From NCBI GenBank assembly GCA_964453605.1, contig CAYVOI010000001.1:740095-804094 (forward strand): a stretch of DNA of 64,000 nt, written 5' to 3'. Position numbers and translations under genes: made by a program. The notes beneath the pieces are model-generated. The model did not search any database, had not been told where the DNA came from, and saw nothing but the letters and a program-made list of their open reading frames with translations. This DNA is from an uncultured Gammaproteobacteria bacterium. GTDB lineage: Bacteria; Patescibacteriota; Patescibacteriia; Veblenbacterales; UBA10138. The number at the start of each line of letters is the position of its first letter. Position 1 is the stretch's first letter. Positions 8,929-34,330 of the stretch are shown here, one piece after another.

Positions 8929-11847
8929 TTAAACTTCTATAATGACCGTTACAATCACACCATCTAAATTTACCTCACTAGAATACTTTGCATGCTCGCC
9001 CTGTTGTAGCTCACGAGCTAAAGCACCCTTGAGTACATCTTCACGATACGCAGATAACACTTTCCAAGTAACCTCATCAGTACCCACTTTCAGTACTACC
9101 CTGTCTTTAATAGTAAGTCCCTGTTTTTTTCTAAGCGCATTTACCTGCCGCACAAATTCGCGCACCAAGCCCATAGCCTTAAGTTCGTCATCAAGTTTAG
9201 TGTCAAGCTCAACTGTCTGAGCCTCCACCACCTCAAGCACGTTTACCTCCTCGGCTACAATGTGCCTAAATACTTCAGGTACGGGGGCTTGCAACTTGCG
9301 CAGCGTTTGCCGAATCTTTATACCAGCCGCCGCACGTTGAGCTAACGCTTGCTCCACCACCGTGCGCACTTTTTGCATTTCGTCCAAAATACTCCGGTCA
9401 AACTTGTGGGCTTCTGGCCAACTCTCGAGGTGAACTGACTCCTTACCACCCTTAACTTCTTGGTACACTTCCTCAGCCACAAACGGGGTAAACGGCGCGA
9501 GCGTAATGGCGAGTTGCCGCAAAACGTAACCCAACGTTGTGCGCACATTACCAGCCTCTAAGCCGCCATTCTTGTACCGCTCGCGGCTGCGACGAATGTA
9601 CCACGTAGAAAGCTCGGTAACAAAGTCGGCCAGGGCACGCCCAGCCTCGGTAATTTTATACGCGTCGAGGTACTCTGTCACTTCCGCTACAGTCTTGTGC
9701 CACAGTGCGAGCACCCACCTGTCCATAACGTGTTCTGAGTGCGGGGGAACGTGGGGGGCTTCCGCCTTCAGCTGGTCGAGGTGGTAAAAGGCCACACAGT
9801 TCATAAGAATGAGGAAGGTTTTCTTAACCACGCTATCTACATCGCTCGGGTCAAAGTTCTTGGGCTCGCCTGGTTGGCTCGCGGTGTAGAAGTGGAACCT
9901 AAGTGCGTCTGCACCGTAGGTGTTCATAATTTCCCACGGGTCCACAATGTTGCCCTTGGACTTGGACATTTTTTGCCCGTGCTTGTCGTTAATGTGCCCC
10001 AGGCAGATGACATTTTTATATGGCGGAAGTTCCTCAATTGCGCCTGCTTTCTTCAAGAGTGTGGCCACAGCCAGAAGCGTATAGAACCACCCGCGCGTTT
10101 GGTCTATAGCTTCAGAAATGTAATCTGCGGGGTAGTGCGCTTTGAGTTGCTCTTTACTGCCCTCGGCGTGTGGGTAGCCCCACTGTGCAAACGGCATGCT
10201 GCCAGAATCAAACCAACAGTCAGCCACCTCCGCAACGCGCCGCATTTCGCCCTTACCCTTGCACTGCTTGCAAGGCCAGGCCACCTTATCTATAAATGGT
10301 CGATGCATGTCAAAGTCCGTCCCAAACTTGCGGCCAGACTTTTCGCTTAATTCTTTCAAGCTCTCCACCACCGTCTGGTGTTTGCAGTCGGCATTGGTAC
10401 ACACCCAAATAGGTAAGGGGGTACCCCAGTAACGTTCACGGGAAATGGCCCAGTCTTTCACGCCGTCCAGCCACTCGCCGAACCGCCCGTGCTGAATGTG
10501 GTCTGGGTACCAGTGTATCTTCTCATTAGCAGCCTGCAGGTCTTTACGCAGACTCGACATTTTAATAAACCACGATGGCTTGGCGTAGTAGAGCAGCGGT
10601 GTAGAGCAGCGCCAGCAAAACGGGTAGTCGTGCGTGTAACTTTCTTCCTTAAACAAAAGCCCTCGTGCTTTCAAATCGGCAATTATCCCCTTTTCTACTT
10701 CGGCATTTTTAACAAACTTCCCCTGCCACTCGGGCACGTCTTTGGTAAACTTACCTGCTTCATCCACCGTGTGGTACTTAGGCAACCCCTCTTTTGTGCC
10801 TAAGGCAAAATCATCTTCCCCGTACATCACCGCAGTATGCACCACGCCCGTACCGTCGGTGGTGGTAACAAAGTCAGCCGCATACACGCGGTGACTTTTT
10901 TCGTTCTGCAAGGGTTCGATGTCGTAGAGCGGCTGATACTCGAGGCCAACCAAATCTTTTCCTTTTAATCCCTTCACAATTTCAAATCTACCAATCCACT
11001 CACCAGCTTTTTCATCAACACCTATCCGTTGGTTTAAACCACCATCCCTTGTGTGGTTAAATAAAATTTCCTTTGCAAGAATATATTGGCCCAACGAAGA
11101 GGTGGAATCAACCTTCGGAAATGCTTCGACAATTAGATAATCAATGTCTTCACCTACAGCCAGCGCCACGTTGCCAGGCAAAGTCCATGGCGTGGTTGTC
11201 CAAGAGAGAATGGAAACTTTGGGGTCGCGCTTCATGCGGAACTTTACATACACCGCTTGGTCGCTGACACTCTGGTAGCCCTGCGCCACCTCGTGACTCG
11301 AAAGTGCCGTGCCGCAGCGCGGACAGTGAGGCAACACTTTGTAGTCTTGGTACAGCAAGCCCTCGTTGGCGATTTGCTTAAAAATCCACCATAAACTCTC
11401 GAGGTAGTAGTTCTCGTAGGTAACGTAGGGGTGCTCCAGGTCCAGCCAGTAGCCCATGCGCGTCGTAAGCTTTTCCCAGTCAGCCTTGTACTTCCACACG
11501 TCTTCACGGCAACGGGCGTTGAACTCAGCCACACCATACTTTTCAATGTCGGGCTTACCCTTGAACTTCAAATCTTTCTCAACCTGGAGCTCCACCGGCA
11601 AACCTTGCGTGTCCCAACCGGCCTTACGCTCCACCCTAAACCCACGCATGGTTTTGTAACGCGGAATAAGGTCCTTAAAGGCGCGGGCCAGCACGTGGTG
11701 CAACCCCGGCTTGCCGTTGGCCGTGGGCGGCCCTTCCCAAAAAACGAACGGCTTGCCACCCTTCGTCTGCGCCAGCGATTTCTCAAAAATGTCGTGGTCC
11801 TGCCAAAACTTCAGCACCTTGTCCTCGAGTTCGGGAAACTTCAGCAT
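8929..11847 (-). CDS. ileS: Isoleucine--tRNA ligase (long eukaryote-like form)
   Basis: HIGH-region PGLHHVLA, KMSKS motif GQKMSKSKGN, editing domain, 972 aa. Confidence 0.95.
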   Translation of the reverse strand: MLKFPELEDKVLKFWQDHDIFEKSLAQTKGGKPFVFWEGPPTANGKPGLHHVLARAFKDLIPRYKTMRGFRVERKAGWDTQGLPVELQVEKDLKFKGKPDIEKYGVAEFNARCREDVWKYKADWEKLTTRMGYWLDLEHPYVTYENYYLESLWWIFKQIANEGLLYQDYKVLPHCPRCGTALSSHEVAQGYQSVSDQAVYVKFRMKRDPKVSILSWTTTPWTLPGNVALAVGEDIDYLIVEAFPKVDSTSSLGQYILAKEILFNHTRDGGLNQRIGVDEKAGEWIGRFEIVKGLKGKDLVGLEYQPLYDIEPLQNEKSHRVYAADFVTTTDGTGVVHTAVMYGEDDFALGTKEGLPKYHTVDEAGKFTKDVPEWQGKFVKNAEVEKGIIADLKARGLLFKEESYTHDYPFCWRCSTPLLYYAKPSWFIKMSSLRKDLQAANEKIHWYPDHIQHGRFGEWLDGVKDWAISRERYWGTPLPIWVCTNADCKHQTVVESLKELSEKSGRKFGTDFDMHRPFIDKVAWPCKQCKGKGEMRRVAEVADCWFDSGSMPFAQWGYPHAEGSKEQLKAHYPADYISEAIDQTRGWFYTLLAVATLLKKAGAIEELPPYKNVICLGHINDKHGQKMSKSKGNIVDPWEIMNTYGADALRFHFYTASQPGEPKNFDPSDVDSVVKKTFLILMNCVAFYHLDQLKAEAPHVPPHSEHVMDRWVLALWHKTVAEVTEYLDAYKITEAGRALADFVTELSTWYIRRSRERYKNGGLEAGNVRTTLGYVLRQLAITLAPFTPFVAEEVYQEVKGGKESVHLESWPEAHKFDRSILDEMQKVRTVVEQALAQRAAAGIKIRQTLRKLQAPVPEVFRHIVAEEVNVLEVVEAQTVELDTKLDDELKAMGLVREFVRQVNALRKKQGLTIKDRVVLKVGTDEVTWKVLSAYREDVLKGALARELQQGEHAKYSSEVNLDGVIVTVIIEV

Positions 11848-32332: not shown

Positions 32333-34330
32333 TTAGCGGACGAGTTTTAGCAAATCAGATTCAGCTAGTACTGTAAGGCCGAGCTTCTTCGCCTTGTCCA
32401 ATTTACTCCCTGGGTTTTCACCCGCTACAACGTAGTCTGTCTCTTTACTCACCGACTCACTCGTTCTGCCACCGAGGTCGCGAATACGGGCTTTGGCTTG
32501 TTCGCGAGTCATAGAGGTAAGTGTACCGGTGAGCACAAACGTTTTACCAGCGAGTTTACCCCGAGCTGGTCGAGGGGCTGGCTCAACCTTGAGCCCTAGT
32601 GCACGAAACTTTCCCAGCAGAGCTTTGGTCTGCTTGCGCGCAAAAAACTGCGCTAGGCTCTCTGCCACCACACTCCCCACCTGCGGCACGGCTTCAAAAT
32701 CAGCCTGAGATGCAGCTGACACCTGCTCCAAGGTACCAAAGTGCGAGGCCAGGTCACGTGCGGTTTCCTCGCCCACGTGGCGAATACCTAAAGCATTCAA
32801 GAAACGCTCTAAAGAAATGTGTTTACGGTCAGCGATGGCAGCAACTAAGTTACGCGCTGAAGTTTCAGCAAAACGTTCGAGGGGCGTAAGCTCTTCTTCT
32901 TTCAGGGTAAAAAAATCTGCCGGGTCCTGCACCAAACCAGTCTCCACCAAAAGGTCAACCGTTTTGCGACCTAAACCTTCAATGTCGAAGGCTCGCCGTG
33001 AAGCAAAATGGTACAACCCCTCGCGCGAGCGACCGGGGCAGCGTACATTAGAACAGTAGTGTGCCACCTCGCCAGCGCGCCGCACCACCCGTGAACCACA
33101 CACTGGGCATGCCTTTGGTATGGTAAACTTTTTTTCTTTCCCTGTGCGGAGCTTAGGCAACACCTGGACCACATCAGGAATAATGTCACCCGCTTTTTCT
33201 ATAATAACAGTATCGCCTATCTTCAGGTCCAGGCGATCAATTTCATCTTGGTTGTGGAGCGTAGCGCGCGACACCGTAGTACCAGCTACCCGGACAGGCG
33301 TAAGCCGAGCTACTGGTGTGAGCACACCGGTGCGGCCCACCTGTACCGTAATATCTTCCACTTTGGTAGTGGCCTGCTCGGCGGCGAACTTGTATGCCAG
33401 CATCCAGCGTTCGCTTTTGCCGACCACTCCAAGCCTGCGCTCCTGCGCAATATCGTTCACTACCAACACTGCGCCATCGGTTTGGTACGGCAGCTTCTCC
33501 CGTGCTGTTTCCCACTCTGCGACGTAGGCAGCCGCGGCCGTAAGGTCACGTAGCTCGCGGCAGTGGGCACTGGTTTTAAAGCCTAAGTCCTTCAACAGTT
33601 CATGTACCTCGGCGTGCGTTTTTTGTCCACAGTCGGTAATAAGCTCAAACGCGTAGAACTCCATTTTCCGTGAGGCAGCCGCGGCTGGGTCTAACTGGCG
33701 AATAGAGCCTGCCGCCAAGTTCCGAGGGTTAGCGTAGGGCGGCAAACCACGTTTAACTTGAGCCTCGTTAATACGCGCTAGCTCAGCTTTGGTGAGTACC
33801 ACTTCACCACGCACATCAAGACGCGTGGGCAACTTCCGCTTTACCGGTTCCAGCCTTAAGGGGATGCTCTCAATAGTCCTCAAATTCTGGGTAACGTCCT
33901 CCCCCACTACACCATCACCGCGCGTAGCCCCACGCGTGAACAAACCATGCTCATAGGTTAACACCATGGCCAGGCCATCCATCTTAAGCTCACCGTAGTA
34001 CCCCCGCACCGCTTCACCAAGGACCTTGCGGCTGCGCTGCTCCCAAGCCTTGACCTCGTCTAGCGAAAAAGCATCGTCAATTGAGAGCACGGGGCGCGGG
34101 TGCCTGACCTTGGTGAACTTGGCTAGTGCCTTACCCCCCACACGTTGGGTTGGCGAGTCGGGGGTAACAAGCTCGGGAAACTGTCGCTCCAGCTCGGCGA
34201 GCTCGTGCTTTAGGGAATCGAGCGCGGCGTCAGAAATCTCTTGCCGGTCCTCTACGTGGTAGAGGTAGCGGTGGTGGTTAATTTCCGCCCGCAGCCTGGC
34301 AATACGTTGGCGCGCCTCAGCTTTCGTCAT
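32333..34330 (-). CDS. ligA: NAD-dependent DNA ligase
   Basis: Adenylation motif KMDGLAMVL (KxDG), Zn finger CPVCGS...C, HhH and BRCT regions. 665 aa. Confidence 0.95.
32397..32423. repeat. 27-bp perfect direct repeat, copy B, inside the ligA 3' end
   Basis: See copy A at 31523..31549. Confidence 0.85.

Follow-up and report, generated by a model that had tools for sequence, protein, structure and literature searches.

The subject of this report is a 64,000-nt window of DNA (contig CAYVOI010000001.1, positions 740,095-804,094 of the forward strand, assembly GCA_964453605.1; Patescibacteriota, metagenome-derived) in which the termini of ileS, argS, ligA and tRNA-Asp, genes that are presumably indispensable, occur in duplicate. 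An original prediction, made from the letters of this window, had described extra genes set beside essential ones, with the essential gene kept intact and a spare terminus left behind, and had ascribed them to a new class of mobile element. The arrangement itself is borne out, and the extra genes are absent from related genomes. As to its origin, we favor with moderate confidence an explanation by additive recombination, in which the duplications would be scars left when diverged homologous DNA of related Patescibacteria was added to the genome, and not the footprint of a self-mobile element. Events of this type are already known; here they are unusually dense, and they lie in a genome of the Candidate Phyla Radiation (CPR).

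Self-BLAST of the whole 64 kb returned five gene-end duplications, at the 5' end of ileS, the 3' end of argS, both the 5' and the 3' end of tRNA-Asp, and the 3' end of ligA, and these constitute the main class of local repeat in the window. The only other significant repeats were the dsbA paralogues, two terminator palindromes and a single 489-nt duplication of a pilin gene. Pattern searches, one with the ligA core and one with a portion of the tRNA-Asp 3' block, gave exactly two copies apiece in the window and none in any shuffled sequence. Repeats had been predicted at four places: those at ileS, tRNA-Asp and ligA are real, the supposed copies at ssrA had been misread, and the duplication of the argS 3' end had been overlooked. 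The mismatches between repeat copies are of all types, with a mixed spectrum; a diversity-generating retroelement was ruled out, as the mismatches are not adenine-specific and the window scans contained no reverse transcriptase domain.

By its genes and the best matches to these in databases, the window falls within Patescibacteria, close to Kerfeldbacteria-like genomes. Along the minus strand the gene order in the region of interest is ligA, an EEP-family gene, the spare ligA end, gatC, gatA, three dsbA-like genes with a thioredoxin reductase, and lgt, followed by tRNA-Asp with several plus-strand genes, then smpB, ssrA, a GIY-YIG gene, infC, rpmI and rplT, and lastly argS, two small plus-strand genes and ileS. 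For comparison, homologous loci were fetched from public genomes and metagenomes, and are labeled here with an L and a number. The relatives considered are those among the matches listed by the genome and metagenome scans, and closer ones may exist; the closest of them is L170/L171/L172, from groundwater metagenomes, with an argS 82% identical to that of the window, and L170 has a gene order from smpB to recO identical to the window's.

Given that the window belongs to a metagenome-derived genome, one has to consider that the repeats might be an assembly artefact, in which two strain variants were strung together in series. Logan contigs of SRR12313480, a k-mer assembly, match the window at 1979-22860 and 23233-34827 without mismatch, and thereby reproduce the argS-ileS, ssrA and ligA sites base for base at 100%; these sites are consequently independent of any single assembler, and an assembly chimera is rejected for them. 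The tRNA-Asp repeat cluster is not spanned by the Logan contigs, which end at 22860 before it and resume at 23233, and the internal order at that site is supported by the source assembly alone. Against an artefact it also speaks that the partners at the argS-ileS joint share only 9 nt, too few to mislead an assembler, that copies only 75-84% identical are not strain variants, and that the same architectures are present in the unrelated assemblies L060, L087 and L109. Overall, we regard this explanation as extremely improbable.

When the window is aligned to L170, the argS-ileS region shows a single gap of 1157 nt, located within ileS after codon 13. The extra block (11809..12965, minus strand) has boundaries that slide within the repeat, and the offset of the repeat is likewise 1157. 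Read in gene direction, it comprises a spare argS 3' end (17 codons and the stop), a hairpin terminator, a 293-aa gene on the opposite strand (11979..12860, plus strand), a bidirectional promoter region, and finally ileS codons 1-13. The start and promoter of ileS therefore stand at both 11809-11870 and 12966-13027 (minus strand; 79-84% identity, E 2.5e-8; self-BLAST core 11809-11863 / 12966-13017, 84%), so that the predicted duplication of the ileS 5' end and promoter around the 293-aa gene is confirmed. The last 17 codons of argS, in frame at 13475/13476-13538 on the minus strand, are copied at 12922-12984 with 75-78% identity (self-BLAST 12922-12975 / 13476-13529, 78%). The right side of the block, consisting of the ileS promoter and codons 1-13, is colinear with the recipient copy, about 80% identical and with indels. 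At the other joint, ileS codons 1-13 are fused in frame to the last 14 codons of the argS-like end, creating a chimeric 27-aa open reading frame (ORF) at 12921..13004 on the minus strand (translation MLKSPEFEEKVLKHGLGILGIKVVEQM, then a stop), upstream of which lies the copied ileS promoter region, reaching about 13070. The fusion takes place at GTGCTGAAG, a 9-nt microhomology that reads Val-Leu-Lys in both partners (ileS codons 11-13, argS codons -19 to -17).

As the block ends in an argS 3' end on one side and in the ileS promoter with 13 codons on the other, it is a complete alternative allele of the argS-ileS spacer, a second and diverged version of the entire module, and what might be counted as two duplications is the product of one event. 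Across the module the copies are 75-84% identical with indels, the longest identical run is 16 nt, and there is no perfect core such as an integrase attachment (att) site would have. The copies differ from each other to about the degree that the window differs from L170 (about 75% nucleotide identity), which fits a donor at sister-genus distance. A single diverged spacer allele joined by microhomology is the signature of general recombination and not of a dedicated element.

The site is empty in relatives: L170 lacks the insert and has a 454-bp spacer with one small antisense gene, and in L168 the spacer is 23 bp long. Elsewhere it is occupied by a sigma-70 gene (L175/L176) or a GIY-YIG gene (L003), and the spacer is thus a hypervariable hotspot. 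The argS-proximal copy of the spacer in the window contains a 71-aa orphan gene (13125..13340, plus strand), listed among the ORFs and preceded in the promoter scan by TTGACA-17-TAAGAT, which shows no homology to the 83-aa gene occupying this position in L170. In this clade the spacers between conserved genes often contain a single small orphan gene, encoded on the other strand and equipped with a strong promoter of its own; the examples at 13125-13340 and 30911-31396 in the window, L170:5217-5468 and L060:11945-12075 are unrelated between genomes. An apparently altered argS C-terminus in an 83% relative (P0130/L177) was rejected, as it consists of the Nextera adapter CTGTCTCTTATACACATCT at the end of a Logan contig (L177:2121-2139).

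Such spacers recall minimal mobile elements, hotspots flanked by core genes that are exchanged by transformation and were described for Neisseria. The likeness lies in differing small cassettes within one core-gene spacer (argS-ileS, ssrA-infC, ligA-gatC) without mobility genes. In minimal mobile elements, however, double crossovers replace the cassette without duplication, whereas here an allele has been added in tandem.

The 3' end of ligA is duplicated as well. The in-frame end (32333..32423, minus strand) consists of a 27-nt perfect block at 32397-32423 and then a diverged C-terminus, and the spare end (31456..31549, minus strand) of the same block at 31523-31549 with the canonical C-terminus ...LGIKVMSETEFQRLVGV and stop, followed by a hairpin and T-run. 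The 27-nt perfect repeat predicted around the EEP gene is accordingly present, and self-BLAST extends it to 90% over 40 nt, of which 27 are perfect; beyond the block, the two ends are about 64% identical. Translation of the spare end shows its reading frame preserved through the canonical C-terminus to the stop. In the window, 1.6 kb separates ligA from gatC, taken up by the in-frame ligA end, the EEP gene, a 30-nt spacer, the spare end and the hairpin with its T-run, past which a 161-aa orphan gene lies on the other strand (30911-31396). In all ten relatives in which gatC was located (ligA identity 49-69%), it directly follows ligA, within about 10-110 bp, so that here too the empty site is found. 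Four nucleotides, GGTG, are repeated across the joint. The C-termini of relatives resemble the spare end slightly more than the in-frame one, and the spare end is probably, though not decisively, the displaced native end.

The tRNA-Asp site had been predicted to contain the gene flanked by its own 5' fragment and by a 3' fragment that bears the CCA, and exact copies of 25 and 41 nt confirm this. From left to right on the plus strand, the outer 5' fragment (22991..23015) matches positions 1-25 of the tRNA at 25/25 and is followed by a hairpin; the inner unit (23016..23221) consists of a 78-nt spacer with that hairpin, the complete tRNA-Asp (23094-23169) and a 52-nt spacer, as delimited by ARAGORN, Rfam and folding; and the outer 3' part (23222..23299) begins with positions 36-76 of the tRNA (23222-23262, 41/41 identical, with CCA) and ends with a terminator at 23279-23299. 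The complete gene encodes no CCA, which is present only on the 3' fragment. By eye, a promoter-like TTGAAC-17-TACAGT lies ahead of the 5' fragment. The two spacers prolong the acceptor stem by 9 bp (GCACAAAGC / GCTTTGTGC, an inverted repeat also seen in the fold), and for this reason the complete tRNA-Asp with its flanks looks like one imported unit inside an older gene. In L086, tRNA-Asp stands clean at the syntenic place without fragments, and in L087 the structure is doubly nested, with 5' and 3' fragments of an L086-like tRNA-Asp allele lying inside fragments of the locus's own allele.

Copied tRNA 5' ends are found elsewhere as well. Among 71 tRNA genes in the fetched loci, six CPR tRNAs are preceded by an exact duplicate of their 5' end, and a GC-rich hairpin comes after each duplicate; the distance to the tRNA is 86-114 nt in five of the six and 238 nt in L087. 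The five beyond the window (L033:18466-18581; L054:20693-20880, minus strand; L022:5519-5645; L091:9905-10000; L087:7781-8093) copy the first 9-19 nt, together with up to 9 leader bases, and the hairpin follows immediately. Fragments of tRNA 3' ends are located downstream only, the opposite polarity being seen solely in one tandem tRNA-Ser array. In L033 and L054, both Peribacteria, the tRNA-Met 5' end and its upstream copy agree at 100% within each genome, leader bases included, although the spacer between copy and tRNA has diverged to about 50%.

Two observations on these loci are recorded in their own right. After its CCA, the tRNA-Asp of L086 continues with a trailer (16629-16645, TGAAGTAT) that also follows the tmRNA CCA of the window (16892-16910) and of L170, a match that may reflect a common processing signal or be due to chance (about 0.005 expected). 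In L087 a GC-rich palindromic element sits in frame inside ligA and again just past the ligA stop (754-807 and 2644-2697, 98% identical), and a similar hairpin interrupts the T-loop of a tRNA-Asp 3' fragment (8222-8290), which points to small palindromic repeats whose insertion into coding sequence is tolerated.

The fourth place, behind ssrA, is of a different nature. The sequence between the ssrA 3' end and the GIY-YIG gene (16731..16910, minus strand) is a structured spacer with a perfect inverted repeat of 19 nt. Through this repeat the CACCA end of the tmRNA, together with its trailer, forms a 19-bp long-range stem with sequence lying 96 nt downstream, and internal hairpins are built on CCATGAAGT/ACTTCATGG. 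The motif CCATGAAGT occurs 7 times in the window against 0.3 expected by chance; five exact occurrences lie in this spacer in alternating orientation, and a sixth, diverged copy there reads CCCTGAAGT. The spacer folds with z = -10.7 relative to shuffles, and its stems are kept in L170, where three base pairs of the long stem have changed on both sides in a compensatory manner. The apparent copies of the ssrA junction are therefore the arms of conserved hairpins, and not a direct terminal duplication around an insert.

The gene behind this structure (16473..16730, minus strand) encodes a stand-alone 85-aa GIY-YIG protein of UPF0213 type (Pfam; PDB 1zg2/1ywl). It holds the same position in L170/L171 and in L086; L175 has neither a GIY-YIG gene nor hairpins after ssrA, and L173 has a 235-aa gene instead. 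Synteny in these relatives sets the site apart from the others: the gene is an old resident of a variable spacer behind a conserved structure, and no recent insert, and the idea of an insertion scar at ssrA does not survive. Small stand-alone GIY-YIG genes adjoin ssrA or smpB in many Patescibacteria loci, sometimes on both sides (L005, L010, L020, L086, L170/L171 and the window at 16473-17782), and near these genes in CPR loci they occur without an accompanying duplication of the target.

The ssrA spacer raises the more general alternative that some of the repeats are not neutral scars but are retained because they serve processing, termination or promoter context as signals in RNA or DNA. The conserved trailer hairpins and long stem, with their compensatory changes and a fold far better than that of shuffled sequences, argue for this, as do the hairpin that invariably follows the upstream tRNA 5' copy, the position of that copy 86-114 nt upstream in five of the six CPR tRNAs, and its identity to the tRNA in L033 and L054 despite a diverged spacer. 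On the other hand, the stubs of ileS, argS and ligA are diverged and need no function, the tRNA-Asp of L086 does without fragments, and neither the ssrA spacer nor the regions of the tRNA copies gave a match in Rfam. As an account of the repeats in the window, retention as signals seems to us quite unlikely.

The pattern recurs in other lineages, as seen in a survey of 81 argS loci and 81 ligA loci among the matches listed. In L060, a Microgenomates contig, a second copy of the last 17 argS codons follows a 465-bp insert in which a tiny ORF runs antisense, and the repeats share a 34-nt perfect block starting at the same 'VLK' codons as in the window. In L109 (11833-12999) the last ~53 codons of ligA occur twice, with 89% identity, and enclose two genes that from the ORF translations we take to be a PIN/VapC-type toxin-antitoxin-like pair, and the related L110 (1985-3612) has a 314-aa antisense gene with a decayed copy of the ligA end. 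Judged from ORF translations, none of the inserts in L060, L109 and L110 has an ORF large enough for a recombinase. The same gene ends are thus hit elsewhere with unrelated cargo, and tRNA fragments in other CPR loci complete the picture; duplication of gene ends is therefore a general phenomenon, not tied to any cargo. It also appears not to be confined to CPR, the ligA sequences of L109 and L110 presumably being non-CPR by their look. Repeats downstream of argS in L011, L016 and L024 were rejected as gene-end copies, since they are palindromic and terminator-like. Our search of the literature for this pattern in CPR returned nothing specific.

It is reasonable to postulate the following course of events. 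Donor DNA would arrive as a fragment in which an accessory gene adjoins the end of a highly conserved gene, and would pair with the recipient through that end, giving the homologous joint. The other end of the fragment would then be joined illegitimately at a short microhomology, either directly, by homology-facilitated illegitimate recombination (HFIR), or through a circle closed from the fragment and integrated by a single crossover. The incoming DNA would be added and not exchanged, leaving the conserved terminus present twice; only products that keep one working copy would survive, and the cut-off terminus would remain as a stub. Selection for an intact essential gene would be the reason why the events look 'target-restoring'. 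That the stubs are short perhaps reflects the instability of longer direct repeats, between which recombination would remove the insert. Both kinds of junction are found: the homologous one at the right side of the 1157-bp block and in the equally colinear ligA, argS and tRNA copies, and the illegitimate one with microhomology in the in-frame fusion at GTGCTGAAG and in the GGTG across the ligA joint. The C-termini of relatives indicate, weakly, that the stubs would be the native copies. DNA uptake may have supplied the donor fragments; the window encodes a type IV pilus cluster, type IV pili in Patescibacteria have been linked to DNA uptake, and the cluster fits such a route as circumstantial evidence.

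Products of this type have been obtained experimentally. In an HFIR assay in E. coli, 56 of 60 clones gave a PCR product diagnostic of partial lacZ duplication, making this the commonest product, and the 14 sequenced had lacZ duplications of 109-950 bp, ascribed to a single crossover of a truncated circular molecule; the microhomology at HFIR joints measures 3-10 bp (PMC3240628). HFIR or single-crossover integration resembles the present case in pairing a homologous joint in a conserved gene with a microhomology joint, and in the partial end duplication that flanks the added DNA. It differs in that ours are natural, fixed events, five in 20 kb of an uncultivated Patescibacteria genome, in the low identity of the donors (about 65-85%), in the very short duplications (25-110 nt), and in that classical HFIR usually yields insertion with deletion, not duplication.

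Several points weigh against the reading we prefer. Among the fetched loci no donor genome with an argS-293aa-ileS arrangement was found, and a recombination tract in ileS and argS could not be mapped by sliding identity to L170, because divergence from L170 is too high and synonymous sites are near saturation. At tRNA-Asp it calls for either two illegitimate joints or two events in succession. The identity of the tRNA-Met copies to their tRNAs in L033 and L054 is not accounted for by passive scars. The perfect blocks of 25, 41 and 27 nt, together with the block that runs from the anticodon to the 3' end, equally resemble the att sites of tyrosine integrases. Last, breakpoints agree within 1-2 codons in distant lineages, at argS 'VLK[HN]GL' (window and L060) and at ligA 'GE[ND]PGSK' (window and L110); this coincidence is weak evidence of site specificity (roughly p about 0.01-0.02 combined) and is open to detection bias.

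The last two points lead to a different explanation, namely degenerate or non-autonomous site-specific integrative elements whose recombinase is elsewhere or lost, the repeats being attL and attR and the element supplying the replacement gene end. An identity block from anticodon to 3' end, with a displaced fragment bearing the CCA, is classical for tRNA-targeting integrases, and integrative and conjugative elements (ICEs) and integrative and mobilizable elements (IMEs) of Firmicutes integrate in the 3' ends of housekeeping genes with similar repeats, an example being the 27 bp of ICESt1 at fda. Cargo-only remnants of integrative elements without integrase are known as well, and in L167 the closest homologue of the EEP gene has a serine recombinase about 6 kb away. 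With ICEs, IMEs, cis-mobilizable elements and tycheposon remnants our sites have in common a target restored by element sequence, a displaced fragment at the far end and repeats of tens of nt. Pfam scans found no integrase, transposase or recombinase domain in any window ORF scanned, however, which bears out what had been predicted on this point, and the inserts of L060, L109 and L110 are, as noted, too poor in coding capacity. Moreover, the tRNA 'elements' measure only 52 and 78 nt; at ileS and at the tRNA a 5' end with its promoter region is duplicated; and the argS-ileS block has no perfect core and ends in a fragment of the neighboring gene, fused by microhomology. The ligA core, the tRNA-Asp 3' block and the ssrA junction had no exact match in the viral contig collection, the only collection searched. 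We hold integrative elements of this sort to be a somewhat unlikely source of the duplications.

The original prediction went further, to a unified, possibly nuclease-driven and homing-like class of element; such elements would cleave essential genes at their ends and supply a replacement end that is resistant. In its favor, GIY-YIG and EEP belong to superfamilies that contain nucleases, and small GIY-YIG genes are strikingly often located beside ssrA or smpB in CPR, and once between argS and ileS (L003). The cargo, however, does not have the look of mobility genes. The EEP gene (243 aa, 31577..32308, minus strand; Pfam), which starts 24 nt past the ligA stop, has as its closest solved relative a Bacteroides mannosyl-6-phosphatase (4c1r, E 3e-27), and on this basis its product is more likely a phosphatase than a DNA nuclease; its closest homologues among the matches listed (49-50% identity) lie in other neighborhoods and not beside ligA, and a look-up of the exact product gave no record. 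The GIY-YIG protein is UPF0213-like and consists of the catalytic domain alone, without a DNA-binding domain. No function is assigned to the 293-aa protein: it had no match in Pfam, PHROG or NCBIfam, its AlphaFold model (pLDDT 74) had no significant fold match in the PDB, nuclease-like or otherwise (best E 0.027, with a meaningless TM of 0.2), and its homologues, 8 clusters only among the matches listed, occur in unrelated contexts, none beside ileS. The cargoes are thus unrelated to one another, with homologues in other contexts, and elsewhere the cargo is a toxin-antitoxin-like pair, a 314-aa gene of no assigned family, a tiny peptide or a sigma factor.

The description of the cargo as low in GC with its own promoter or terminator holds in part: the 293-aa gene (0.47) and the GIY-YIG gene (0.43) are indeed below the window mean of 0.55, whereas the EEP gene (0.52) is close to it, and the promoter scan flagged no minus-strand promoter-like site between the ligA stop and EEP. 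A conserved short motif at all junctions had also been envisaged, and comparison of the repeats shows none visibly common to the joints. Homing, furthermore, does not duplicate its target, whereas the protein-gene and tRNA sites here all carry duplicated ends. The free-standing GIY-YIG homing genes of phages are alike in being small, placed between conserved genes and sporadic among relatives; in contrast to them, the gene in the window is 85 aa long, UPF0213-like, devoid of a DNA-binding domain and syntenic over large distances. With unrelated cargoes, no common motif and a microhomology-joined spacer allele between argS and ileS, a nuclease-driven class is largely refuted, and we judge it very unlikely.

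Two repeat-bearing features of the window stand apart from these sites. The 489-nt direct repeat (41615-42103 and 42218-42706, 100% identity) comprises two tandem pilin-like genes with an N-terminal methylation motif within the type IV pilus gene cluster, and appears to have arisen very recently by gene duplication or gene conversion. At 53001-59942, a 2313-aa ORF with many short internal nucleotide repeats (families D2, D3, D9 and D10) is probably a large repeat-containing surface protein.

A bolder interpretation, which we offer as a speculation and consider unlikely, is that accessory genes spread between diverged Patescibacteria lineages as recombinase-free cassettes riding on ultra-conserved ends of essential genes. 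The ends in question may be those of tRNA, tmRNA, aminoacyl-tRNA synthetases and ligA; Patescibacteria probably import DNA constantly; the terminal duplications would make the cassettes excisable and re-insertable; and the arrangement of tRNA 5' copy, hairpin and new promoter would be actively maintained, as the concerted evolution in L033 and L054 suggests. In a stronger variant, an unrecognized trans-acting recombination system may target these gene ends. Whatever its cause, the combination of a tRNA 5' copy with a hairpin, in which the copy matches the tRNA exactly in two Peribacteria, could matter beyond the present case.

If additive recombination is indeed responsible, the window would be a compact natural record of gene gain without mobile-element machinery in an uncultivated bacterium with a reduced genome. 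Conserved gene ends would be the landing pads at which DNA arrives from relatives of only 65-85% identity, with selection on the essential genes shaping which products survive. An essential-gene-end stub beside an orphan gene would then be a searchable signature of gene flow in metagenome-assembled genomes, and annotators would be warned that such stubs and chimeric mini-ORFs are neither att sites nor real genes.

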